From: an uncultured Eubacteriales bacterium | GTDB taxonomy: Bacteria > Bacillota > Clostridia > Peptostreptococcales > Anaerovoracaceae | Assembly: GCA_949285555.1 (NCBI GenBank) | Contig: CASDYG010000007.1 | Location: 25,457 to 89,456, forward strand | Direction of reading: 5' to 3' | Length of the DNA stretch: 64,000 bases | Shown: in pieces, positions 5,128 through 59,512 of the stretch | Position numbering within the stretch: position 1 is the stretch's first letter | Layout of the letters: each line of letters starts with the position of its first letter | Position numbers and translations under genes: made by a program | Notes under the pieces: model-generated | Database searches by the model: none | What the model was told of the DNA's origin: nothing | The model's input: the letters and a program-made list of their open reading frames with translations, nothing else

Positions 5128-6372
5128 CTAATCCAGTCGCCTTTCTATTTCCCTAAGTCTTTTTGCAAGTAGATTTACATTGGCAATTCTACGTACTACC
5201 TTGTACGCATTTTCATCGCGATAAAGTAAAAGCTCTTTCATTGTAGGCACGATGCTCTCTAAAATCTCATGTAACTTTTGCTCATATTCCTGCCTATCCA
5301 TGTGCTGCTCTTCCTGCTCCCAATTTTCTATGAAATAGCTATAATCCATAGAGAAGAGCTTTTTAATAAGCTCGCTAACCTTCAGCTTCACCTCATTTAA
5401 GGCAATTTCATATCCGTCTGTTGCCTTTCGCGCCTGTTCATATATATCCAGACATCCTTTTTCCATAGTTTCAAAGGCTTCATCAAGGCACGCATATTCC
5501 ATATTCATTGCCTTCCAGAAAAAGTGAAGTTGCGTAATTGTCTCCTGAATGAGATCCCTTAGCTTTCGTTTGGCCGATTCATCCATAATCTGACTTTTCA
5601 GTCTTTTCTGATCATGCACAACCATACTCTTAAGCTTGTCTATACCTTCGCCTGTTTTCGCACTAACTGGTACAAGGTCAATATCGTCTACACATACATC
5701 CATAAGCTGGCTCAATATCTTCCGGCAATATTCCAAGTAAGACTTTAATTCAGTATCACTTATTAAATCAATCTTGTTTACTACAAAATATAGTTTGCCT
5801 GCATATTCTTTGCTCTTTGCGAGAAAATCCATCTCTATTTGATTTATTGGACTATCTACAGAAAGAAGAAATATAACGCCATCACTTTCTTTCAAATATT
5901 CCGTAGCCGTAAGAGTATTGTTCGTATGAAAAGAGCCTACTCCCGGGGTATCGACAAACACGATACCATTCTTCAAAAATTTTGATAGGCATGTAATATG
6001 GACACTTGCGACCTCAAGCTCATTATTTTTATTTTCCTGCTCGCTAATGTATTTAGAAAGTTCATCAATTTCCACAGGTATTACAGCACCATTTTCAAAT
6101 GCCACTTTACCACTTAAACCGCCATAGGTGACCTTCGTCACGGCACTTGTGATAGGTACAATACCTACCGGAAGGATATCTTCTCCTAAAATTGCATTAG
6201 ACAGGCTACTTTTCCCTCTCTTAAACTGGCCGATTATTGATAGCGTCATCTCCTGCCGCTTCATTCTATCAAGAGTATCTTTTAAAATTCTTGCCTGAGT
6301 CCGACACGCCTGCTCATCCTTTAGCAGGTCATAAGCACGTGTTACTGCCTCAAGTCCTGTAAGCTTTTCCAT
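5128..6372 (-). CDS. Dynamin-family (bacterial dynamin-like) GTPase, short form
   Basis: 414 aa. G1 GQFKRGKSS, G3 DTPG, G4 NKID, followed by a long helical/coiled C-terminal half. Confidence 0.8.
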   Translation of the reverse strand: MEKLTGLEAVTRAYDLLKDEQACRTQARILKDTLDRMKRQEMTLSIIGQFKRGKSSLSNAILGEDILPVGIVPITSAVTKVTYGGLSGKVAFENGAVIPVEIDELSKYISEQENKNNELEVASVHITCLSKFLKNGIVFVDTPGVGSFHTNNTLTATEYLKESDGVIFLLSVDSPINQIEMDFLAKSKEYAGKLYFVVNKIDLISDTELKSYLEYCRKILSQLMDVCVDDIDLVPVSAKTGEGIDKLKSMVVHDQKRLKSQIMDESAKRKLRDLIQETITQLHFFWKAMNMEYACLDEAFETMEKGCLDIYEQARKATDGYEIALNEVKLKVSELIKKLFSMDYSYFIENWEQEEQHMDRQEYEQKLHEILESIVPTMKELLLYRDENAYKVVRRIANVNLLAKRLREIERRLD

Positions 6373-6373
6373 A

Positions 6374-7324
6374 TTACTTTCTATCTATCACCTTCTTAAC
6401 CATTTTTACAATATCATCAGCTGTCATATGATATTTTTTCTTAAGCTCGTCGGGCTTACCTGATTCACCAAATACATCCAGCTGTCCCACCATCTCTACT
6501 GGGACTGGCATATTCTTCACAAGCACCTCTGCAACGGCTGCACCAAGACCGCCTATTACAGAATGCTCTTCAGCAGTTACGATAGCTCCTGTTTTAGCAG
6601 CACTATCTAAAATCATTGCTTCGTCTAGTGGCTTGATAGTATGCATATCAACCACCCTGGCTTTTATCCCTTCTCTTAGCAAAACATCGCATGCCTCAAG
6701 AGCATCTGCCACCATAATTCCTGTAGCAATGATGGTGACATCATCTCCTTCACGAAGCTTTGTAGCCTTACCTATTTTTATGCTCCTTGCCATCTCATCA
6801 TCATAAACTGTTGGGACAGCAGCACGACCTAATCTAATATACACAGGTCCATTCAGATCAACTGCCTCCCTTAGAAGCACCTCTGTAGATACTCCGTCTG
6901 AAGGATTTAATACTGTCATAGTCGGTATGCTTCGCATAAGTGCCAAATCCTCAAATGTCTGATGACTAGCACCATCCTCACCAACGGTAATTCCCGAATG
7001 TGTAGCACATATCTTTACATTTGCATTAGTATATCCAATTGAATTTCTTATTATCTCAAACGCCCTGCCGGCAGCAAACATAGCAAATGTACTTGCGCAA
7101 GGGATCTTGCCACCATGAGCAAGCCCTGCTGCAACGCCATATAAATTCTGCTCTGCAATTCCCATGTTGAAGAAGCGCTCTGGAAATTCCTTACCAAAAC
7201 CTGCGGTCATGGTGGATTTAGACAAATCTCCGTCAAGCACTACCAGCTTCTCATTTTCTCTTCCTATCTCCACCAAGGCTCTTCCATAGGCGGCTCTTGT
7301 GGCTTCTTTTTTAATATCTCCCAT
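6374..7324 (-). CDS. Transketolase, C-terminal (pyrimidine-binding) subunit
   Basis: 316 aa with the typical FNMGIAEQN..GGKIPCASTFAMF..HTIKPLD pattern. Overlaps the N-terminal subunit stop by 1 nt. Confidence 0.9.
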   Translation of the reverse strand: MGDIKKEATRAAYGRALVEIGRENEKLVVLDGDLSKSTMTAGFGKEFPERFFNMGIAEQNLYGVAAGLAHGGKIPCASTFAMFAAGRAFEIIRNSIGYTNANVKICATHSGITVGEDGASHQTFEDLALMRSIPTMTVLNPSDGVSTEVLLREAVDLNGPVYIRLGRAAVPTVYDDEMARSIKIGKATKLREGDDVTIIATGIMVADALEACDVLLREGIKARVVDMHTIKPLDEAMILDSAAKTGAIVTAEEHSVIGGLGAAVAEVLVKNMPVPVEMVGQLDVFGESGKPDELKKKYHMTADDIVKMVKKVIDRK

Positions 7325-33004: not shown

Positions 33005-36000
33005 TTAGCCTCTGGCCTTTCGCCTTGATACGGCAGCAGCCAGACCCGCTAAGATACCTAGAGATAATAGTGCCAATGGATTTTCCTCATCTCCGGTTTT
33101 TGGAGCCTTTTTCTTATTATCAGGTGTCTTTTTATCTGCCGGTTTTTCAGGAACAAACTTCCATGTTCCGACAAACTTAACATCCTTATCCACTAGCTTT
33201 TCATCTGCATCCCAGCCTACAAACTTCCATGTACCACCAATCACAGTTAGGTGAGTATATTCACCACTAATCTTAAATGGCGTAGCCTTGCTTCCCTCAT
33301 ACTGCTTTCTTTCTGGTGGTAGAAGCCTCTTTATTGCTTCTGGTATTTCACTTCCATCCTCCGATATAAACTCGTGAGTTATAGTGTACTCAGGTTTCAT
33401 CTCCTTATGCCATATTCCAGTAAACACGGCAGGATCTTCTGAAATAGTTACATTTAACTTATCCCATTCTTTGAATGTGTAGATGGCATCATAAGTTTCA
33501 ACCATACCAGATTTAAGTTCCATAACAGCTACTAAGTCGCCATGATAATAATAAGCATTATCCTTTGGCAATAGCTCCATAACCTCTTCTGGAAGTACAG
33601 TATTAGGATCATCTCCTACAAACTCATATGTTACCTGCTTTTTCTCACCCTCAGTAAACGTCCATACACCAGTGAACTTTTCATTCTTGTTGGTTACAGT
33701 AATCTTATCCTTATCCCAACCGGTGAACGTCCATGTACCTTCTCTTACCTTTACCTCACCATCAGGTATTTCTGTAGCTGTGATCTCATCACCTTCGTAC
33801 AGATCTGTGTGAGCAGGTGGAAGCAGGTTCATAACTTGCTCTGGAACTGGGCTGCCATCATTACTTGTAAACTCATAGCTCACATTGTACTTATTCCCTT
33901 CAGTAAAGGTCCATGTTCCTGTGAAGCTGTGATTCTTATCAGTAACTGTCAGGCTAGGATTATCCCAACCATTAAATGTCCATGTACCAGTCCTTACCTT
34001 AACAGTAGTTTTGTCTATTGGGTCTGGTGTTACTACTACACCCTCATATACATCAGGCTTATCCGGAGGAGTTAGCTTCTTAATCTCTTCAGGTATTTCA
34101 GGACTGTTTCCATCAGGCTTAAAGTTATATGTTACCGTATACTTTGGTGCCTCTGTGAAGCTCCAAGTTCCTGTGAAGGTTACATCTCCCTTGTTTACCT
34201 GCTTGCTGTCATGATCCCAGCCATCAAATGTCCATGTTCCCTCTGTTACCTTAACAGTCTTTACTGCAACATCTGCTGCCTGAGCTGTTACTGTTACTCC
34301 GTCATACAGTCCTTCAATATTTGCTGGCTTTTGCTGTAGCACCTCTGGTGGCAGCGTTCTTCCTGCTGTAGCTGCCGCTACAAACTCATGAACCGCCTTG
34401 TACTTCTCGCCCTCTGTGAAGGTCCAGCTTCCTGTTATTACAAGATCTTCTGTTCCCATCTTGGCGGTTGGCTTATCCCAGCTATCAAAGGTCCATACTC
34501 CCTCTGTTACCTTATGAGTATTCTGCTTTGGTGCATCTGCTGTTACATCTGCTTCCTCATATACATTGGTCTTTTCTTCTGGCAGATATGCATTTATCGC
34601 TTCTGGTAGTGGCTTATCTGTATCCTTTGCTACAAACCTATATACTACCTTATGCTTTGGTGCCTCTGTAAAGCTCCATGTTCCTGTAAAGGTTACATCC
34701 TCATCTCCTACTGTGGCCTCTGTTGGTCCCCAGCCATTAAATGTCCATGTTCCATTTGGTTCCTTTACAGTCTTATCTGTTATCTCATCTGGAGTTACCC
34801 TTACTCCCTTGTAGATTCCTTCCTTCTTTGGTGGAAGCTTTCCTTTTATGGAGTCTGGCAGCTCTGGTGAGCCTGCTGCTGGTACGAAGCTATGTATTAC
34901 ATCATGCTTTGGCTTTTCTGTGAAGCTCCATGTTCCTGTGAAGGTTACATCTCCTCCATTTACCTGCTTTTCGTCTTCATCCCAGCCATTGAAGTGCCAG
35001 AAGCCCTCTACTACTTCTACATCTACATCTGTGATTGGTGTAGGATGTGCCATGCTTTCATCATATACATTTTCTATGTCTGCTGGCAGCTTCTGTGTAA
35101 CCACTTCTGGTAACTGTCTATCTGTTCCTGCTGCAGGTTCAAAGACATGCTTTACCTTATACTTATTGAAGCTCCAAGTACCTGTAAATACAGTATTTTT
35201 GCCTACAGTTTTACTCTCTTCATCCCAGCTGTCAAATGTCCAAGTACCATTAGGTAGTTTAACACTTTGCTTCTTAGGAGGATTTGGCCTTACTGTAGTT
35301 TCCACATAAACATCTTCTATATCATCTGGAAGTGCAGCCTCTACCTCAGGTGGAAGTGTACTAGGACTACCCGCCGCTGGAACAAATCTATGGGTTACAT
35401 TCACCTTATCTGCTTCAGTGAAATTCCATGTACCTGTGAAGGTTACATCACCCTTATTTATCTGTTTGCTTTCCTTATCCCAGCCAGCAAATGTCCATGT
35501 ACCCTCTGTTACCTTAACCGACTGTACTGCCACCTTAGTTGCGGTAGCTGTCATTCCATCATAGAAACCTTCAATATTTTCAGGCTTATGCTGAAGTACC
35601 TCTTGCGGAAGTGCTCTTCCTGCTGTAGCTGCCGCTACAAACTCATGGATTGCCTTGTACTTCTCGCCCTCTGTAAAGGTCCAGGTTCCTGTTATTACAA
35701 GGTCCGCTGTTCCCATTACGCTTCCCGCAGGTAGATCCCAACTATTAAAGCTCCATACTCCCTCTGTTACCTTATGAGTCTTCTGCTTTGGATCAGCTGC
35801 CTGTATAGGGGTCTTTTCATATACATCTGTCTGATTTTCAGGTAGATACTGATTTATTTCTGCTGGCAATGGTTTATCCGTGCCACTTGCAATAAATTTA
35901 TATGTAATATTGTGCTTAGGTGCCTCTACAAAGCTCCATGTTCCTGTAAAGGTTATATTTGCACCTTCTATCTTCTTGGATTTTGCATCCCAGCCATCAA

Positions 36001-39000
36001 ATGTCCATGTTCCCTCAAGTAATGTATGTGTATTATTTGTTGGGTCCTGTGGTGTTACAACCACCTCATCATATACGCCCTTTTGAGTAGCAGGCTTATA
36101 GCCTTCTATTTCAGGAGGAAGAGCTCTGGTCTCTCCTGCCTTTGCCTCAAACTTGTAAAGTACATCATACTTGTTAGCCTCTGTGAAGCTCCATTTACCT
36201 AGGAACTCTATATCCCCACCATTGATTTGCTTAGAATCCTTATCCCAGCCTAAGAATGTCCACTTTCCTTCTGTCACCTTATGCTCAGTCGCAGTAGGAG
36301 CCTGTGGATTTACAACAGTTTCATTGTATACATTTTGCTGATTCTCAGGCTTATATTTTTCTATCTCAGCAGGAAGTGGTCGTGATTCTCCATCTGCTAC
36401 AGCAAATCTATAAGTTACATTGTACTTGTCTGCTTCAGTAAAATGCCACTTGCCAACAAACTCTGATGGGCCATTTACTACTAACTCAGTAGGAGTCCAG
36501 CCATCAAATGTCCATGTACCATTATAAAGCTTCACGCTTTCAGTAGTAGGACTATTAGGTCTTACGGTGCTTCCCTCATATACATCTGTAATATTTGCAG
36601 GGAGTGTGGCATTTACCTCCTGTGGCAATGTGGAAGGGCTACCCTCTGCCGGCTCATATCTATGAGTTACATCGTATTTCGGTGCTTCAGTAAAGCCCCA
36701 TGTTCCTACGAATTCAACATTTGCACCATTTATAACCTTGGTAGGCTGATCCCAGCCCTTAAAGGTCCATGTACCCTCTGTAACTCTTACAGTCTTAACA
36801 GCTACATCTACAGCAGATGCAGTCATTCCATCATAAAGTCCCTCAATATCATTTGGTTTGCTATTGAGAATCTCATTTGGCAATGTTCTACCTGCCGCCT
36901 GCTCAACCACATAGGTATGTGTCGCCTTATATTTAGTACCTTCTGTGAAAGTCCAGGAACCTGTAATAGTCAGATCGCTTTTACCCATAACCGTATTAGG
37001 TGCAAGATCCCAGCTATCGAAGTTCCATGTACCCTCTACTACCTTATGTGTTTTAGTAGTAGGATCAGCGGCGGTAATAGGAGTTCCTTCATACACATCA
37101 TTCTGTGCAGGAGGGAGGTAATTGTTAATTTCTACTGGAAGCTCTTTGGTTGTACCCTTAGCTGCAAACTGATATATAACATTATGTTTTGGCGCCTCAA
37201 CAAATGACCATGTACCAACAAATTCAACATTAGAATCTCCAACTACAGCATTCGCTGGCTTCCAGCCATCAAATGTCCATGTTCCGTTGAGTTCCTTAAC
37301 CGTCTTGCCGGTAAAGTCTGTAGGTGAAACAGTAACGCCCTTATATACACCTTTCTGATCCTTTGGAAGCTTTGACTTTACAGATTCAGGTAGAGCAGGT
37401 GCACCCTGTGCAGGCTCAAATCTGTGTACTACATCATACTTTGGATTTTCCACAAAGCTCCATGTACCAGTAAATGTTACATTTCCACCTCTTATCTGTT
37501 TTTCACTAGCATCCCAACCGTCAAAATGCCAGTTTCCTTCTACCACGCTTACATCCTTATCGCTCTCTTTCAGGTCTGTAGGCCTTGCGGTAGTTTCATC
37601 ATACACATCATTTACATCCTTTGGAAGCTTAGCAGTAACTTCTGGTGGAAGTTCTCTTGTAACTCCATCGGCTGCCTTAAATTTGTGTATTATCTTATAC
37701 TTGTTCGCCTCTACAAATGACCACTTACCTACAAATGTAACATCATCTGCATTTATCTTTGCAGTCTTAGGCTCCCAGCCATCAAACGTCCATGTACCTT
37801 CCGTCACCTTAACTGTTTTCTTAGAAGGATCCGTCGGTGATACACTGGATTCATTCTTTAGATTTTCAATATCAGCAGGCTTTAGAGTAGTCACCTCTGT
37901 CGGAAGACTCCAGCCCTTAGTAGCTGATTCAAACGTATGCTTCGCCTTATATCTCTTCTTCCATTCTGGCTTTAGCTTATTTTCAATTTGGAAATTATTA
38001 TTTGCAAGTCCAACTGAAATAAGGTGCTCATCCTTGCCATCAGTTAGATCATATTGCTTCGGTGCGGAAAGCTCCTTTAAGATATAGTTTCCTCTTACTA
38101 CCTTCACCTTTACAGGATGTTCAAGATCACCTTCAAGGCAAAGCTCTCCCTTAGCATTTGTCACCAAGTTCTCCAGCTTTACACCGTCTTCATTGGTGGC
38201 AACAGTTCTTTCATTATTTTTACCTAAAGCATACAAAGTGAATTTCGCACCCTCAATTGGCTGCTTTATGCCAGGTTCGCCTTCCTTTTCTTCCTCGCTT
38301 ACCTTCGTAATTACAGCAGTACTATATTCACTTACCTGAGCTCCTATTACACCTGGTACTACCGTACCCGTCCTTTTCTTTGGTGCAGGACTCTTTCCAT
38401 CCTCAATAGGAGTTTTCTCAATTCTTGGTCCGGTTCCGTCAGGACTTGATTCCTTATCCTGTGCATAGTAAGCAAAGGAATTGTGGTAAATCGGGAATTT
38501 ATCCTTATCTAAATCTGGTGAGTTGTTCACGATTTCATTGGAATAAACTACCGTTAACCAGCCACCCTTTTCTCTTCCAATTCCTTTAAAATTCTTTATG
38601 TGAATTTTAAAGCCTTTACCTACTACCTTGTTCAGTCCACCAGCTTCCTCTATCAACTTTTCTTCCTCTGGCGTAAGGGCTTCACCTGCCGGCTTTTCAA
38701 GAATGATATTCTTTGGCACTAATGCTTCCTCAGCACTTTCTGTCATAGCACCATTCTTCTCTATCTGAACCTTCTTAGCTTCCCACTCAGCCTCTCTGGG
38801 CTTGGTAGGATCTTCGCTTTCTTTAGTCAGGTAGTATATATGATATACATTTACCTGCATGAGCTTATCCTCAGGAACTTCCGTTCCTTCAGGTGGTTCT
38901 TCCTTATATGAGTTTTTCTTTTCTCCCACCTTGATAAGCTGCTCCGTAAAATCCTGTTTATTTTCTCCATTATAGATATTGATATAATCCGTTGATTTTA

Positions 39001-39772
39001 GGTTAATATCAGGAGCATCATAGATGAAGAACTCATTTTCACGGGACATTTCAGTTCCGATAATTAAGTTGTATAGGAACTGTCCTTTACCCAGCTCAGA
39101 TTTACCCTGATCATATGAACCAGCAGTTTTATTGGCATACTTTTCTGCCGGTTGTACCGGCGGTCTATCATATGTGTATTTTACCGGCTTACCAAGGTCC
39201 TTATCATTTATGGATATATTATATGTGAAAGGAATATTGGTTTCCATAGGATGATTTTTAAAGTAATCTGAAGAAGTGTTACTTCTAATTCCCAATGGTA
39301 GCTCAAGATGAGCATTAAAATCAGCTAAATTTTCCTCAAAAGTAAATGTTATACTTCTTCTGTCATCCATATCAAGGCTGGCTACAACCTTTTCCCCATC
39401 CTTGAGAACCTTATTTAAGCTTGTAGCATAATCGATGAGCAGCAAATCCTTTTCACTGCTCTCACTATTTAGCTTGATTACCAGCTTATCCCCCTTATTG
39501 ATAGTCATACCACTATCAGCCAAAAACTTCAGATCGATGATGAGCTTATTTTTAGCCGTAGTCTCATCATATTTAGTAGGGGTCTCTTCACCCATTATGT
39601 CTCTTCCGGTCGTATCTTCATCATTTTCGTATACCATCCATTTAACTGACTGTACGATTGAAGATAAGTCCTTTTCCGGAGTTTCATCTGCCATTACAGG
39701 AAATTTTAAAAATCCCAGCAGAGAAACGATCAGCAGAAGCGCTAGCGTCTTCCTAAGATTCTTACTTTTCAC
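33005..39772 (-). CDS. Giant sortase-anchored cell-surface adhesin-like protein (~2255 aa): signal peptide, N-terminal adhesin-like region, one Cna-B/SpaA-type domain, ~19 tandem 84-aa repeats, APKTG sorting signal
   Basis: Start set at GTG 39772, 7 nt after GGAAAGGAG, giving VKSKNLRKTLALLLIVSLLGFLKFPVMADE (signal peptide). The ORF-track ATG at 39841 has no SD. GAKFTLY...GNYILKELSAPKQY is a Cna-B-like domain. The C-terminus is APKTG plus a hydrophobic helix plus RRKARG. Confidence 0.85.
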   Translation of the reverse strand: MKSKNLRKTLALLLIVSLLGFLKFPVMADETPEKDLSSIVQSVKWMVYENDEDTTGRDIMGEETPTKYDETTAKNKLIIDLKFLADSGMTINKGDKLVIKLNSESSEKDLLLIDYATSLNKVLKDGEKVVASLDMDDRRSITFTFEENLADFNAHLELPLGIRSNTSSDYFKNHPMETNIPFTYNISINDKDLGKPVKYTYDRPPVQPAEKYANKTAGSYDQGKSELGKGQFLYNLIIGTEMSRENEFFIYDAPDINLKSTDYINIYNGENKQDFTEQLIKVGEKKNSYKEEPPEGTEVPEDKLMQVNVYHIYYLTKESEDPTKPREAEWEAKKVQIEKNGAMTESAEEALVPKNIILEKPAGEALTPEEEKLIEEAGGLNKVVGKGFKIHIKNFKGIGREKGGWLTVVYSNEIVNNSPDLDKDKFPIYHNSFAYYAQDKESSPDGTGPRIEKTPIEDGKSPAPKKRTGTVVPGVIGAQVSEYSTAVITKVSEEEKEGEPGIKQPIEGAKFTLYALGKNNERTVATNEDGVKLENLVTNAKGELCLEGDLEHPVKVKVVRGNYILKELSAPKQYDLTDGKDEHLISVGLANNNFQIENKLKPEWKKRYKAKHTFESATKGWSLPTEVTTLKPADIENLKNESSVSPTDPSKKTVKVTEGTWTFDGWEPKTAKINADDVTFVGKWSFVEANKYKIIHKFKAADGVTRELPPEVTAKLPKDVNDVYDETTARPTDLKESDKDVSVVEGNWHFDGWDASEKQIRGGNVTFTGTWSFVENPKYDVVHRFEPAQGAPALPESVKSKLPKDQKGVYKGVTVSPTDFTGKTVKELNGTWTFDGWKPANAVVGDSNVEFVGTWSFVEAPKHNVIYQFAAKGTTKELPVEINNYLPPAQNDVYEGTPITAADPTTKTHKVVEGTWNFDSWDLAPNTVMGKSDLTITGSWTFTEGTKYKATHTYVVEQAAGRTLPNEILNSKPNDIEGLYDGMTASAVDVAVKTVRVTEGTWTFKGWDQPTKVINGANVEFVGTWGFTEAPKYDVTHRYEPAEGSPSTLPQEVNATLPANITDVYEGSTVRPNSPTTESVKLYNGTWTFDGWTPTELVVNGPSEFVGKWHFTEADKYNVTYRFAVADGESRPLPAEIEKYKPENQQNVYNETVVNPQAPTATEHKVTEGKWTFLGWDKDSKQINGGDIEFLGKWSFTEANKYDVLYKFEAKAGETRALPPEIEGYKPATQKGVYDEVVVTPQDPTNNTHTLLEGTWTFDGWDAKSKKIEGANITFTGTWSFVEAPKHNITYKFIASGTDKPLPAEINQYLPENQTDVYEKTPIQAADPKQKTHKVTEGVWSFNSWDLPAGSVMGTADLVITGTWTFTEGEKYKAIHEFVAAATAGRALPQEVLQHKPENIEGFYDGMTATATKVAVQSVKVTEGTWTFAGWDKESKQINKGDVTFTGTWNFTEADKVNVTHRFVPAAGSPSTLPPEVEAALPDDIEDVYVETTVRPNPPKKQSVKLPNGTWTFDSWDEESKTVGKNTVFTGTWSFNKYKVKHVFEPAAGTDRQLPEVVTQKLPADIENVYDESMAHPTPITDVDVEVVEGFWHFNGWDEDEKQVNGGDVTFTGTWSFTEKPKHDVIHSFVPAAGSPELPDSIKGKLPPKKEGIYKGVRVTPDEITDKTVKEPNGTWTFNGWGPTEATVGDEDVTFTGTWSFTEAPKHKVVYRFVAKDTDKPLPEAINAYLPEEKTNVYEEADVTADAPKQNTHKVTEGVWTFDSWDKPTAKMGTEDLVITGSWTFTEGEKYKAVHEFVAAATAGRTLPPEVLQQKPANIEGLYDGVTVTAQAADVAVKTVKVTEGTWTFDGWDHDSKQVNKGDVTFTGTWSFTEAPKYTVTYNFKPDGNSPEIPEEIKKLTPPDKPDVYEGVVVTPDPIDKTTVKVRTGTWTFNGWDNPSLTVTDKNHSFTGTWTFTEGNKYNVSYEFTSNDGSPVPEQVMNLLPPAHTDLYEGDEITATEIPDGEVKVREGTWTFTGWDKDKITVTNKNEKFTGVWTFTEGEKKQVTYEFVGDDPNTVLPEEVMELLPKDNAYYYHGDLVAVMELKSGMVETYDAIYTFKEWDKLNVTISEDPAVFTGIWHKEMKPEYTITHEFISEDGSEIPEAIKRLLPPERKQYEGSKATPFKISGEYTHLTVIGGTWKFVGWDADEKLVDKDVKFVGTWKFVPEKPADKKTPDNKKKAPKTGDEENPLALLSLGILAGLAAAVSRRKARG
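33148..37957 (-). repeat. Array of ~19 tandem ~253-bp (84-aa) coding repeats with consensus KY.V.H.F....G....LP.EV...LP.....VY.......P.......V.V.EGTWTF.GWD.....I.G..V.F.GTW.F.E
   Basis: Counted by hand from the translation (aa ~629-2232 of the ORF-track protein). The GTW.F.GW and F.GTW.F.E motifs recur every ~84 aa. Confidence 0.85.
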
Positions 39773-40124
39773 AAGCAAACTCCTTTCCAAAATGAATATA
39801 AAATAAATATTAATAAGTAACAAAAACTCACTCCTAGCCATCTTCTAGAAGTATTACCATACCTTTTGGTAGCTATGATTTTATTACTTTAGCATTTCTA
39901 TTTCAACTACGAAAAAGCGGTATTAATAGACAGTTTTTTCTTTTTGTTTTTAAATAAAAGATTTTGATAGTGTTTTTAAATATGATATTAAAATATTTTA
40001 TTTAAATTAACTCTTGCTGTCCTGTTTTTTATTTTTTAATGTAATGTGCTATTTATTTTTATCATGAAAATACAATTATTTTTTTATTTTTTATACATTT
40101 TTTATGCAAAATATATAAATTACA

Positions 40125-52880: not shown

Positions 52881-53894
52881 TTATCCACGCCATTTTAGTG
52901 CTTTATATAATTCATCTGCCCCAGGTGGTAATATCTCTGTTGAGACTCCATTTTTGTCTATGAGTAAAGGAGAATTATCAGTTAAATGCCCTATGACGCA
53001 GCAATCAATTCCACTATCTGAAAGTCCTTCAATCAGAGAGTTTTTACTTCCTTCATCTATGAAAATAATCATACTTCCACTGGAAATAAGCCGCATATAC
53101 TCTATATCCAAAGTCTTGGCTAATTGTCTTGTAAGGTTTAGTACAGGAATCTTATCTTCGTAGACTTCACATCCAAGCTCACTTGCTTTACACATTTCCC
53201 ATATTGCACCAAGTACACCACCCTCGGTTATATCGTGCATCATAGATACAGGATATTTACCCGCGATAACTCCCTCTCTAACCACACTTGTCTGCTCTAA
53301 AAGTTTCTTACCGCTGGCAATTTCATCAGTCGAGAAATATTTTGAAAGAGGCTCTTCAAGCTCTGAAAAAATTATCCCCGTGCCTTCAATTCCCGCCTGC
53401 TTTGTCATTAAAATTAGATCACCATTTTTCGGCTTAATATCTAAAGCATCCTTCTTTGCTTTTTTCCCTATAGCTGTAGCTACTACAAGCGGCTGTTTTA
53501 CCGCTTCTGTAATCTCCGTATGCCCCGCTACAATCATCACACCCAGGTCATCTGCCCTTCGCCTGGCATCCGTCATAATTATATCTATATCCTTTGCAGT
53601 AGTACCTACAGGAAGCATGAGAACAAGAGAAATCGCCATAGGAGAAGTGCCTGTTGTAGCAATGTCATTACAGTTTATATCAATCGCTAAGCTTCCAATA
53701 CTTTGCACTGTAGCAGAAATAGGATCGCTGGTTACGATGCACTGATTGTCATCAAAATCTAAAATACCACAATCAAGACCTAATCCCGGAGGAGTAATTA
53801 ATCCTGCGTGACTTTTCGATATAGGCTTTAATACAATTTCCTCTAATATCTGTGTATCAAGCTTTCCTACTGGTAATTCCTTGTTATATTCCAT
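52881..53894 (-). CDS. AIR-synthase-related (PurM/HypE/ThiL superfamily) protein
   Basis: 337 aa with ..GLDCGILDF....IVTSDPI... and ..IVAGHTEIT.., the PurM-like N and C domain pattern. Confidence 0.7.
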   Translation of the reverse strand: MEYNKELPVGKLDTQILEEIVLKPISKSHAGLITPPGLGLDCGILDFDDNQCIVTSDPISATVQSIGSLAIDINCNDIATTGTSPMAISLVLMLPVGTTAKDIDIIMTDARRRADDLGVMIVAGHTEITEAVKQPLVVATAIGKKAKKDALDIKPKNGDLILMTKQAGIEGTGIIFSELEEPLSKYFSTDEIASGKKLLEQTSVVREGVIAGKYPVSMMHDITEGGVLGAIWEMCKASELGCEVYEDKIPVLNLTRQLAKTLDIEYMRLISSGSMIIFIDEGSKNSLIEGLSDSGIDCCVIGHLTDNSPLLIDKNGVSTEILPPGADELYKALKWRG

Positions 53895-55885: not shown

Positions 55886-58144
55886 CTAAATTTTATTTAA
55901 TTTAGCAATTCCTTTAGCCATTTTCTTCGTACCAGCATCATCAAATATAACTGTCCAGGTACTATTATCCTGATCGACTACGATGCCCTTTCCAAATTTT
56001 GCATGACTGATCCTTTGACCATTGCTAATTGGTTCAAAATCCTTTTTGGAATTGGTATTCTTATTAATTATATAGGATCCCATTCCTGTAAATAGTCCGT
56101 CACTATTTCCACTACCGTAAGGTTTTCTATTGCCTGTAGAAAAAGGTTTTTTCATAGGTTTACCCGCATAACCATCTGGGCCGTCCGTGTAAAGGTCACC
56201 CCAGTATCTACTTGATGGCTTGCTCTCCTCCCTGAGGCCTTCCACTGAATCTTCATCCATCTCATCTAGGAATCTGGACTTTTTCATATATTGCCTATTT
56301 CCAAATCTGTTTCTTTCAAGGGCTCTGGTAATATATAGCTTCTCTTTCGCTCTGGTAATACCTACATAGCAAAGTCTACGCTCTTCATCAATATTTCCGT
56401 CTGCAATTGCCCGGTAGCTAGGAAAAATTTCTTCTTCCATGCCGACAATAAACACTACAGGATACTCTAAGCCCTTTGAGCTATGCAAGGTCATAAGTAC
56501 TACCGCTTCGGCATTTTGATCCAGATTATCCACCTCACTCATAAGTGTGATAGACTCTAAAAAGGCTTCAAGTGTAGCTTCCTCGGTTTCTTTTTCAAAC
56601 TCACTTATTGCCGTCTTTAATTCCAGCAAGTTATCCAGTCTGCTATTATCCTCTTCTTTTTTGCTATTTACAAGAGCTTCCCAGTAGCCAGAGCCTTTAA
56701 GCAGGTTATCATATACCCCCTCAATTGTATATTCATCCTTGTGCTCCCACATGTACTCATACAGATTTATAAGGTTCGAAACTGCATTCCTTGCCTTAGC
56801 CGGAAACACTTCTGTAAGTTTATTATTTACAATAAATGGGAGCAGAGCCTCTCCACTTGCCATTTCATCTCTTAGTGCAATTACTTTTCTTAAAGTGGCA
56901 TCACCTATCCCTCGTTTAGGTTCGTTTATTATGCGTGAAAAAGCAATGTCATCACTGGGGTTTACAACAAGTCGAAGGTATGCAAGCATATCCTTCACTT
57001 CTTTTCTATCATAATATCTTACCCCTGATAGCACTCTAAAAGGAATCTTATTTTCCGCCAATATACTTTCCAAAGTTCTCGACTGGTTATTGCCCCTGTA
57101 TAAAATAGCTATATCCTTATAGCTTACTTGTTTATCATAATGCAGACGCTCAATTTCACTAGCCACAAACTTTGCCTCGCCTATTTCCGTGTCGACAGCC
57201 CTGTGTATGACCTTATCTCCATCATGTCCCTCAGTCCATAGCTTCTTCGACTTTCTACCTCTATTATTTTTAATTACTGAATGGGCAACATTCAGAATAT
57301 GCCCTGTTGAACGGTAATTCTGCTCCAGCTTAATGACTCTCGTACCTGGAAAGTCTCTCTCAAAATTCAAAATATTTTGAATATTTGCACCTCTCCATTC
57401 ATAGATACACTGATCATCATCTCCAACAACACAGATATTGCCATGATGCTCGGCAAGCATACGTATAATTTCATACTGAAGTCTGTTGGTATCTTGGTAC
57501 TCATCCACCATAATGTACTGAAATTGCTGCCTGTATCTATTTAAAATTTCATCTGAAGCTTTAAAAAGTCCATATAGATTGAGGAGAAGATCATTGAAGT
57601 CCATAGCGTTATTTTCGCGCATTCTAAGCTCATAAGTCTTATATACTTGCCCTATTTCCTCTTCAATAGTATCGCTGGCCTCCATAATCACCTTTGCAGG
57701 CGGAATAATAGCTTCCTTATAATCACCTATTTTATATAGTAATGTATTAACATCAAGCTCTATATTTTGCTGCTTCAAAATATCTCGGATAAGCGCCTTT
57801 TGATCCTGTGGATCATATATCACAAAGCTACTGGTATAACCAAGTACATCTGCATGCCTTTTTAAAATAGCCAGTGCCATGGAGTGAAATGTCTTAATCC
57901 AGATTTGGCTGGCAAGCTCCCTGGATACAAGTGTTCCTATTCTATCTCGCATTTCCTGGGCAGCCTTATTCGTAAATGTAACTGCCAAAATATTAGACGG
58001 ACTTATGCCCTCGCTTAGCATGTATGCTATCCTGTGGATCATAGTTCCCGTCTTGCCACTTCCCGCTCCTGCTAAAATTAGTACTGAGCCATCAATTTGC
58101 TTTACAGCCTCCTGCTGCTGACTATTTAAATGGTCTAGATTCAT
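55886..58144 (-). CDS. pcrA: ATP-dependent DNA helicase PcrA (UvrD family)
   Basis: AGAGSGKTG, VDEYQDTN and VTRAKEKLY motifs. Start placed at the ATG 6 nt after AAGGAG (58144). The ORF track extends to 58159. Confidence 0.9.
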   Translation of the reverse strand: MNLDHLNSQQQEAVKQIDGSVLILAGAGSGKTGTMIHRIAYMLSEGISPSNILAVTFTNKAAQEMRDRIGTLVSRELASQIWIKTFHSMALAILKRHADVLGYTSSFVIYDPQDQKALIRDILKQQNIELDVNTLLYKIGDYKEAIIPPAKVIMEASDTIEEEIGQVYKTYELRMRENNAMDFNDLLLNLYGLFKASDEILNRYRQQFQYIMVDEYQDTNRLQYEIIRMLAEHHGNICVVGDDDQCIYEWRGANIQNILNFERDFPGTRVIKLEQNYRSTGHILNVAHSVIKNNRGRKSKKLWTEGHDGDKVIHRAVDTEIGEAKFVASEIERLHYDKQVSYKDIAILYRGNNQSRTLESILAENKIPFRVLSGVRYYDRKEVKDMLAYLRLVVNPSDDIAFSRIINEPKRGIGDATLRKVIALRDEMASGEALLPFIVNNKLTEVFPAKARNAVSNLINLYEYMWEHKDEYTIEGVYDNLLKGSGYWEALVNSKKEEDNSRLDNLLELKTAISEFEKETEEATLEAFLESITLMSEVDNLDQNAEAVVLMTLHSSKGLEYPVVFIVGMEEEIFPSYRAIADGNIDEERRLCYVGITRAKEKLYITRALERNRFGNRQYMKKSRFLDEMDEDSVEGLREESKPSSRYWGDLYTDGPDGYAGKPMKKPFSTGNRKPYGSGNSDGLFTGMGSYIINKNTNSKKDFEPISNGQRISHAKFGKGIVVDQDNSTWTVIFDDAGTKKMAKGIAKLNKI

Positions 58145-58397
58145 CATTATCTCCTTCATATCAATTTTAACATAAATGGCCTGTATAAAAAAGGATAGCT
58201 ACATCATTACATAGGCGGTAGTCCACTTACTACATCTAAATTATCAAGAATTTTTACAATTAAAAACCATTGAATTTTACATAACTCTACCCTATATATC
58301 TTTATAAAGTACTCTCAAATGTAATTGAGGCTAGTGCTTAAAATATTACATATACTTACTAAAGGCAAAAGCTTTAACCTCTCAGGAAAACATACAC

Positions 58398-58419
58398 AAA
58401 AAAACCGGGCTAGCCCGGT
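58398..58419 (-). terminator. Intrinsic terminator ending the riboswitch-containing transcript
   Basis: ACCGGGC-TA-GCCCGGT hairpin followed by T7 on the minus strand (A-run 58398-58404 on plus). Confidence 0.7.
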
Positions 58420-58564
58420 AATAAGGTCTGGGGCAGGCTGACGAGACCTGCCCAAAGAATGAAAAGCATCGGCTACCCGGTCATTGAAAATAAAAAGGAC
58501 CATGGATCGCCCACAGCCCGTATTTGCTGTATATTGGTTCCTTTACCTATCGGTTCACCGCCGA

Positions 58565-58720
58565 CGTAAAGAGCTTTCATGCAGGTCTCCTGACTCATGG
58601 CTAGAGCTCATCTATACCTTCCCAATTACTCAGTGGCTTCATCAGATGATGAAATTAGATGAGTATACCAATTACAGTGGCGGGACCGTAGAGGATTTGC
58701 ACCCCTTTCCCTCTTAGCCC
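58565..58720 (-). promoter_or_regulatory. Cobalamin (B12) riboswitch aptamer
   Basis: Minus-strand hallmarks in the canonical order: AGAGGGAAAGGGGTGCAAATCCTCT (58690-58714), GTCCCGCCACTGT (58674-58686), and the B12 box AGTCAGGAGACCTGC (58581-58595). A P1-like TAAGAG/CTCTT(T)A closure is possible. Confidence 0.8.
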
Positions 58721-58761
58721 TATTTACATAGGGAACATGAAGCGTATGTTGCTACAATGCT

Positions 58762-58790
58762 ATTATATAGCACTTTTCCTACAGTGTCAA
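58762..58790 (-). promoter_or_regulatory. Perfect consensus sigma-70 promoter (TTGACA-17-TATAAT) driving the riboswitch transcript
   Basis: TTGACA (58785-58790), 17-nt spacer, TATAAT (58762-58767), about 40 nt upstream of the aptamer. Confidence 0.65.
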
Positions 58791-59080
58791 TAATGTGTTC
58801 AATTTCTTTTTTAATATTCTCAAAATGTTGTGAGCAATAACACATACTACATAAAGCGTGATTACATTTAAGACTATGAACGATATATCAGCATTTTTTG
58901 CGAAAAGCATAAAGTACCTGTTTTTTAAGTTGCATATACAAAAAGCTTAAAGTATTTTTACAATACAAATAGTCTTTTTATGTTTTATATTTTTATATTG
59001 CTGTCCATTTGTAAATAAAATATGAATTTTTTGCTATAATAGGAGAATAAAGAAACGTTTATGAGGTATATATATAATGT

Positions 59081-59512
59081 ATGAGAAAGTATAAAAAATT
59101 TAAAATTCCCAAAACGGATTATATTTCTCAGTCTAGAAAAGAAAGTAGAAGAAAATTGGAGATAGATGTCAGCCTGCTTATGCTTGAAATGTATTGCAAG
59201 GCACACCATAATTCTCGTCTGGAATTTTCTTCTCCCGAAGCAGGAAGAAAGGTTTACCTGTGCAAGGACTGTATAAAATCAGCAAATAGACTTGTGGCAC
59301 AAAGCATCCGGTGTCCACATATGGGATACAAGACCTTTTGTCACAACTGCCCAAGGCCCTGCCACAAGCCGGATGACATTGTAAGGCAGGCTATGCGATA
59401 CAGCGGAAAAAGGCTTTTGATTCATCATCCTTTATTAGGTATAAAACACCTTTTATTCCTTATATACTGTATTATTAAAGGTAAAAGCAAACACGAAAGT
59501 AAGATTAACTAA
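59081..59512 (+). CDS. Nitrous-oxide-stimulated-promoter family (YgbA_NO-like) Cys-rich protein
   Basis: 143 aa. MLEMYCKAHH...LCKDC......RCPHMGYKTFCHNCPRPCHKPDDIVRQAMRYSGKRLLIHHPLLGIKHL matches my memory of the YgbA_NO family pattern (CP.....K..C..CP.HCY.P......R.VMRYSGPRM...HP). Confidence 0.7.
   Translation: MRKYKKFKIPKTDYISQSRKESRRKLEIDVSLLMLEMYCKAHHNSRLEFSSPEAGRKVYLCKDCIKSANRLVAQSIRCPHMGYKTFCHNCPRPCHKPDDIVRQAMRYSGKRLLIHHPLLGIKHLLFLIYCIIKGKSKHESKIN

Follow-up and report, generated by a model that had tools for sequence, protein, structure and literature searches.

We describe a cobalamin (vitamin B12) riboswitch unit on the minus strand of a 64,000-nucleotide stretch of DNA from an uncultured Eubacteriales bacterium of the family Anaerovoracaceae (contig CASDYG010000007.1; hereafter the window). 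The unit, at 58398-58790, is probably an entire 5' leader, from a B12-repressed transcription unit that has lost its structural gene, the leader having stayed in its ancestral place upstream of pcrA and ligA. An earlier note, made from the letters alone, had seen no cognate gene behind the riboswitch and offered three explanations: a new B12-sensing trans-acting small RNA (sRNA), a relic left after gene loss, or B12-dependent read-through into the pcrA-ligA operon. The relic explanation is the one that the relatives favour, where the same leader directly precedes an open reading frame (ORF) of the AP_endonuc_2 family just upstream of pcrA-ligA. According to the earlier note, finding the element in front of a normal ORF in related loci would make it a relic rather than an sRNA; this is what the relatives show, and in the window the ORF is absent rather than merely disrupted.

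The promoter and the aptamer lie as follows.

58762-58790, minus strand: sigma-70 promoter TTGACA-17-TATAAT, score 12/12.
58563-58755, minus strand: cobalamin riboswitch aptamer, RF00174, 108.9 bits (gathering score 31.5, E = 2.4e-26, full model 1-189).
58595-58581, minus strand: B12 box AGUCAGGAGACCUGC, inside the aptamer.

The perfect promoter and the aptamer with its quoted motifs had both been proposed in the earlier note, and both were confirmed, the former at 12/12 (58790..58762) and the latter by the full-model match to RF00174. The aptamer starts 7 bases past the promoter and includes the L5 loop CCCGCC. This promoter was the only promoter-like site on the minus strand in 57900-59400, and a search of 58100-59100 against other Rfam families, at E up to 10, gave sub-threshold sRNA matches only. 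An independent Logan assembly (L004, ERR10610548) was identical to the window at 100%, with no strain variation.

The closest other PcrA proteins, 49-50% identical, came from Anaerovoracaceae of the Emergencia or Hornefia type; a PcrA search of genome contigs gave only relatives of 41-43% identity, none with the leader. The pcrA loci of the ~50% relatives, which fall into four lineages, were retrieved and then scanned with Rfam. A cobalamin riboswitch (104-122 bits) was found upstream of pcrA in three of the four lineages (loci L005, L008 and L010), followed in each by an AP_endonuc_2 (PF01261) gene of 255-267 aa, here called the TIM-barrel gene, and then by pcrA, ligA and an AIRS gene in the same order as in the window. 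From leader to ligA these loci span 3612-9232 in L005, 3772-9225 in L008 and 3799-9227 in L010. The stretch between aptamer and TIM-barrel gene in these relatives is homologous, block for block, to the tail of the window unit, the shared blocks being CGGCGGTGAACCG, CAGCAAATACGGGCTGTGGG...CCACAGCCC, GCTTTTCATTCTTT and GGCAGG-nnnCGTCAn-CCTGCC with a T-run after it.

A search of metagenomes with the 19-mer AGCAAATACGGGCTGTGGG, which can only detect loci that have retained the leader and is biased accordingly, returned 40 contigs with about 34 true leaders, from loci in metagenomes and metagenome-assembled genomes of Anaerovoracaceae-like Clostridia. Mapping by tblastn revealed the order leader, TIM-barrel gene (253-267 aa), pcrA in 24 contigs, with ligA next if the contig was long enough. 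The family as a whole shares a near-consensus promoter (TTGACT-17-TATAAT), and its RF00174 scores of 91-125 bits bracket that of the window aptamer. We then used a covariance model, R1 (alignment A2), made from 15 leaders with the window left out; it matched the window at 58596-58420 with 119 bits (E = 4.2e-26, model 1-178). Because R1 was built without the window and matches over the full model, the window tail is a homologue of the leader family. By sequence homology, this tail is the conserved expression platform of a cis leader family and not a new sRNA module, and the window leader, upstream of and co-oriented with pcrA-ligA, occupies the family position.

The gene that normally follows was not found. 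In a family member it is expected within about 130-300 nt of the H2 hairpin motif of the platform (see below), where the window has no AP_endonuc_2 ORF; nor is there any credible ORF between the leader and pcrA. No trace of the gene was detected in the window by tblastn with three of the TIM-barrel proteins, and a profile hidden Markov model of 15 members, run on the six-frame translation of the window, had a best E of 0.94, located elsewhere. Among 37 of the 40 window ORFs of at least 110 aa, Pfam gave no domain for B12 transport, B12 biosynthesis or B12-dependent enzymes and no eut or ANTAR domain, in agreement with the earlier note, which had seen no B12-related gene in the 64 kb. The placement expected of a cobalamin riboswitch, in the 5' untranslated region of genes that encode B12-independent isozymes or that serve to transport, synthesise or remodel B12, is thus lacking in the window and present in the homologous loci that bear AP_endonuc_2.

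Loss of the TIM-barrel gene with retention of the leader is recurrent. In L027 (9886-10366) the leader, with an aptamer of 91 bits and rplQ upstream, stands directly before pcrA; in L049 (695-1659) it stands before an unrelated signal-peptide ORF and the locus has no TIM-barrel gene. As L027 is nested within the leader-plus-gene clade, its gene loss is clearly secondary. Both leader and TIM-barrel gene have been lost in L009.

The relatives' gene encodes an AP_endonuc_2/TIM-barrel protein that is, from its scores, weakly CbiR-like and Nfo-like: 36-42 bits on the CbiR model NF041277 (cut-off 105) and 43-48 bits on Nfo models (cut-off 244). The nearest solved structure is that of MJ1311, an uncharacterised protein. 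CbiR is a cobamide-remodelling phosphodiesterase of the AP endonuclease 2 superfamily (PMC7733943). The relatives' gene resembles it in belonging to PF01261 and in sitting under a B12 riboswitch, but adjoins pcrA-ligA instead of cobamide genes and scores far under the CbiR cut-off. Within the library that was searched, no paper was found to tie a cobalamin riboswitch to pcrA or to an AP-endonuclease-family gene.

The expression platform, consisting of a P13-like hairpin, H2/T1 with its U-tract, H3 and T2, is directly 3' of the aptamer.

58541-58571, minus strand: P13-like hairpin CUUUAC-GUCGG[CGGUGAA]CCGAU-AG-GUAAAG, with a covarying inner stem.
58487-58530, minus strand: H2/T1, a mini-hairpin, an overlapping terminator stem and a U-tract (terminator scan and alignment).
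Within 58487-58530, minus strand: mini-hairpin CAGC[AAAUACGG]GCUG, which overlaps the T1 stem.
58519-58497, minus strand: T1 stem GGGCUGUGG/CCAUGGUCC (terminator scan).
58496-58487, minus strand: T1 U-tract UUUUUAUUUU (DNA TTTTTATTTT; terminator scan).
58471-58481, minus strand: window-specific segment ACCGGGUAGCC, an insertion of ~10 nt relative to the family, upstream of the invariant block.
58454-58467, minus strand: invariant 14-mer GCUUUUCAUUCUUU, predicted to be single-stranded.
58431-58453, minus strand: H3 hairpin GGGCAGGU[CUCGUCA]GCCUGCCC, 4 pairs with compensatory changes, -15.0 kcal/mol.
58398-58419, minus strand: T2, a palindromic, GC-rich 6-bp terminator ACCGGGCUAGCCCGGU plus U7 (DNA ACCGGGCTAGCCCGGT + T7), -10.0 kcal/mol.

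The earlier note was right that the ~170-nt tail is structured and rich in hairpins and that it ends at a strong intrinsic terminator, T2, which the terminator scan recovered at 58398-58419, but it had overlooked a second terminator, T1 (58519-58487). The structure was tested on a 16-sequence alignment (the window and the 15 other leaders) using RNAalifold and explicit pair counting. Taken jointly, P13, H2 and H3 had 98.9% of cells paired and 7 pairs with compensatory double changes, a level of pairing reached by none of 500 shuffles, with slid controls at 32-55%. In the inner stem of P13, double changes occurred in three of four pairs and 100% of cells were paired. H2 (9 pairs) was likewise 100% paired, and all 15 of its one-sided changes leave G-U wobbles; its 5' arm is fixed by the search pattern, and the changes in its 3' arm are all C-to-U or A-to-G, which keep the pairing. 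The 14-mer GCUUUUCAUUCUUU, which lies outside the search pattern, was identical in all 16 leaders. An RNAduplex search for its partner gave results that were inconsistent from leader to leader.

The hairpins differ in what follows them. A U-rich tract of variable quality comes after H2 in 16 of 16 leaders, and five to eight U residues come after H3 in 14 of the 15 relatives, where the window has CAGACCUUAUUA. Because of this difference in U-tract quality, H3 is taken as the main terminator of the family and H2 as the first, variable one. In the window, H2/T1 (-12.9 kcal/mol) is the weakest of the 16 leaders, the others ranging from -14.3 to -19.9 kcal/mol; its U-tract is good. T2 begins 11 nt past H3 and is specific to this lineage, being present in none of the relatives. 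The window-specific segment ACCGGGUAGCC is complementary to T2, and the composite fold of 58486-58398 reaches -36.3 kcal/mol. Neither the H3 nor the T2 sequence has a second copy within the window, each occurring once.

Some relatives carry further variations on this leader. In L036 and L019 the family leader has an H3 without a U-run, and downstream of it come another RF00174 aptamer and a large secreted protein; the tandem aptamers of L036 are at 6201-6407 and 6574-6771, and the very large secreted-protein ORF begins at 6975. A gene of the formimidoylglutamase/arginase family (hutG model, 248 bits) accompanies the locus: it is upstream of the leader in L005 (1411-2430) and L010 (2713-3732), and in L043 a hutG/arginase-like gene (604-1617) is found between leader and TIM-barrel gene. 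A second riboswitch precedes a cysteine-rich 'zf-like' PF04071 gene in L005 (2517-2858) and L023 (1499-1790). Because the tail of this riboswitch matches R1, at 50-61 bits, the platform type is common to other B12-regulated genes.

Two sets of pairings suggest how the leader could respond to B12. The P13 loop sequence GGCGG complements CCGCC in L5, and both sequences are near-invariant in the leaders. An L5-L13 kissing loop is established in adenosylcobalamin (AdoCbl) riboswitch structures, and the P13 loop and L5 are a candidate for this contact. A pairing between L13 and the H3 loop (GGUGA:UCACC) was also tried and rejected, as it is broken in 5 of 16 leaders without compensation. The second set involves the H3 5' arm, which with its adjacent loop, GCAGGUCUC (58451-58443), is a perfect 9/9 complement of one half of the B12 box, GAGACCUGC (58589-58581). 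This helix is the minimum-free-energy fold of the window transcript when the H3 3' arm is omitted, and in the fold of this shortened transcript it is extended by a predicted pairing of the invariant 14-mer GCUUUUCAUUCUUU with the P1 3' strand AUGAAAGC. It is predicted in 5 of 12 evaluable relatives, with L005 and L041 left out of the count, and across the alignment 88% of cells pair, compared with 31-54% in slid controls. The fold models make the H3 5' arm and the B12-box half a candidate antiterminator.

Binding of B12 would close P1 and dock L13 (GGCGG) onto L5 (CCGCC). The ligand-locked aptamer would then retain the B12-box half GAGACCUGC and the P1 3' strand, so that H2/T1 and H3 form and transcription stops. 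When B12 is lacking, the same B12-box half and P1 3' strand would pair with the H3 5' arm and the invariant block, blocking H3. As modelled, the leader is likely to be an OFF switch for a B12-repressed transcription unit. In the window, H3 has no U-tract and the new, constitutive T2 would end whatever gets past T1; all that the unit would then yield is non-coding RNA, about 265 nt or 357 nt long, that has nothing to regulate in cis.

Such products bring up another reading, namely that the leader, once orphaned, was exapted as a stand-alone RNA that senses B12, with two isoforms ending at T1 or T2, which would act in trans, on a protein or an mRNA, or as a B12 buffer by a logic like that of EutX and Rli55. 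EutX and Rli55 are built from a promoter, an aptamer, a first terminator, an extension of ~90 nt and a second terminator (PMC8237595), and the window unit has these parts in the same order. The perfect consensus promoter, the lack of decay in the leader sequence and the retention of the invariant 14-mer despite gene loss would also fit an RNA with a function of its own, and the lineage-specific terminator with its complementary insertion suggests that the 3' end has been maintained. On the other hand, cis-acting leaders are the source of each element of the extension, so that no trans function is needed to explain it, and a recent deletion accounts for the lack of decay equally well. The unit has no ANTAR-type dual hexaloop: a scripted scan found no paired AxxGxx-hexaloop hairpins, the EutV/ANTAR substrate, but only one 3-bp AAAGGA hairpin, so the ANTAR hairpins suggested as a check in the earlier note did not materialise. 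No eut, ANTAR or B12 genes were found within the 64 kb, and no other Rfam family matches. We consider this exaptation unlikely, and the trans-acting sRNA of the earlier note is left unsupported by a tail that is homologous over its full length to cis leaders, lacks the dual hexaloop and has no eut/ANTAR genes nearby.

The unit can also be set against known systems. With RF00174 riboswitches in general it shares the full-model aptamer, the B12 box, the complementarity of L13 GGCGG to L5 CCGCC and the intrinsic terminators; it departs from them in having no regulated gene, an unusually long platform (~170 nt), two terminator hairpins in succession and an invariant 14-mer predicted to stay unpaired. 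Like EutX of Enterococcus faecalis and Rli55 of Listeria monocytogenes, it is a 5' riboswitch followed by a terminator, an extension and a second terminator, with no ORF. Unlike them, it has an extension that lacks dual hexaloop hairpins and is homologous to the cis leaders of a protein gene, and the eut genes and ANTAR regulator were not found in the 64-kb window. The antisense RNA AspocR of Listeria is, like the window unit, a riboswitch-terminated non-coding transcript; here, however, there is no plus-strand gene between 58398 and 55886, and pcrA, which comes next, runs on the strand of the unit itself.

The direction of change also points to loss of the gene from an intact leader-plus-gene locus. 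In the PcrA tree the window is an outgroup (48-52% identity) to the leader-plus-gene clade, whose members are 58-99% identical. The window tail is 56-67% identical to the clade tails, the mean within the clade being 70%, a pattern consistent, at the level of sequence identity, with vertical descent. Because outgroup and ingroup both carry the leader, the leader predates their split; an attenuator that is complete yet has no gene to control would be implausible as the ancestral state. Of the 76 columns at which the other 15 leaders never vary, the window deviates at 2; gene-bearing members deviate at 0-4.

Several points weigh against gene loss as we propose it. The leader shows no decay: its promoter is perfect, its aptamer score lies in the family range, and in the 3' arm of H2 all three of the changes specific to the window preserve the pairing as wobbles. 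The two window-specific insertions complement each other and rebuild a terminator. These observations fit either recent loss or continued selection on the RNA. Because the nearest PcrA is only 49-50% identical, the loss can be neither dated nor polarised directly, and the TIM-barrel gene could lie elsewhere in the genome, beyond the 64 kb. As for the mechanism, an invariant B12 box leaves the candidate antiterminator no room for covariation, and for H2/T1, whose coupling to B12 binding is presumed, the only conserved competitor is the 4-bp CAGC:GCUG mini-hairpin.

If continued selection were the answer, the leader would have been kept as an autonomous B12-responsive RNA whose 3' terminator was rebuilt by the two complementary insertions. 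Its isoform length would depend on B12, and it would act in trans, buffer B12 or tune a minor read-through into pcrA-ligA, with the B12 riboswitch heading the pcrA/ligA operon in the clade. We hold this proposal to be doubtful.

Whether the riboswitch could still act in cis depends on the region between the unit and pcrA-ligA.

58160-58397, minus strand: AT-rich spacer with no ORF, no homology to the relatives and no TIM-barrel remnant.
58172-58164, minus strand: extended -10 element TGTTAAAAT, 19 nt before the pcrA start.
58144-55886, minus strand: pcrA, 100% identical over 752 aa to database protein P0001.
55875-53908, minus strand: ligA, which follows pcrA; the same pair follows the TIM-barrel gene in relatives.

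The longest pcrA ORF begins at 58159 (757 aa); the database start is the third ATG, at 58144, and is preceded by GAAGGAG. The TGnTAnAAT motif of the extended -10 also precedes pcrA in L010, L014, L015, L030, L044 and L027. As judged from these motifs, pcrA has an extended -10 promoter of its own. In six relatives (L008, L020, L028, L031, L025 and L050) only 12-15 nt, with no terminator, separate the TIM-barrel gene from pcrA, and in these the B12 riboswitch probably heads an operon containing DNA-repair genes.

These six gaps, and the L027 leader directly before pcrA, speak for a riboswitch promoter that adds B12-repressible read-through into pcrA-ligA in the window as well. Among the H2 hairpins of the family the window's T1 is the weakest, the window's H3 is without a U-tract, and upstream of pcrA on the minus strand only the riboswitch promoter reaches 9/12. 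However, read-through would have to pass T2, which has no evident antiterminator save a helix that also ends at the U-tract, and then the spacer of about 240 nt between T2 and pcrA. The extended -10 near the pcrA start, with its motif kept in six relatives, also argues against it, and essential genes are unlikely to rely on a B12-repressed promoter. With two terminators, the long spacer and the pcrA-proximal -10 in the way, we regard the read-through put forward in the earlier note as improbable here, though it is plausible in some relatives.

The conserved blocks of the tail might alternatively belong to a small ORF under riboswitch control: frames of 35/41 codons (58598-58473), 19 codons (58468-58409) and 62 codons (58503-58315) exist, and 6 nt ahead of an ATG at 58580 the B12 box has the look of a Shine-Dalgarno sequence. 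Of the 15 other leaders, however, 10 have ATA in place of this ATG; the reading frame of the conserved blocks differs from leader to leader, spacer lengths differ by non-multiples of 3, and conservation tracks RNA pairing. Control of a small ORF is very improbable. A peptide reading of the conserved blocks was ruled out because the frame is not conserved, and the earlier note's rejection of the 35-codon and 62-aa frames holds for the same reason.

The wider neighbourhood contains an AIRS-family gene, the signal recognition particle (SRP) RNA and dnaX past ligA, and divergent ygbA-like and catalase genes upstream of the leader. The AIRS-family ORF (53894-52881) overlaps at its 3' end the 5' end of the large SRP RNA (52893-52679) by 13 nt (52881-52893). 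A hydrophobic 43-aa ORF (58779-58910, minus strand), called as a gene in the Logan assembly, ends in the spacer of the riboswitch promoter; it lacks a clear Shine-Dalgarno sequence and is probably not a real gene. Farther away, a minus-strand ORF at 33005-39841 encodes 2278 aa with 19 SHIRT-domain repeats and an SpaA-like domain, probably a giant surface protein.

What looked like an orphan riboswitch sRNA is, in its likeliest interpretation, a documented case of gene loss that left behind a complete and pristine leader. It carries a caution, since the architecture of EutX and Rli55 can be mimicked by a gene-less riboswitch that has a structured 3' extension and, besides, a second terminator, and such look-alikes can be resolved by synteny, even in distant relatives. 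The leader family itself, with its long two-terminator platform, its invariant 14-mer and a B12-controlled TIM-barrel gene linked to pcrA-ligA, appears to be undescribed.

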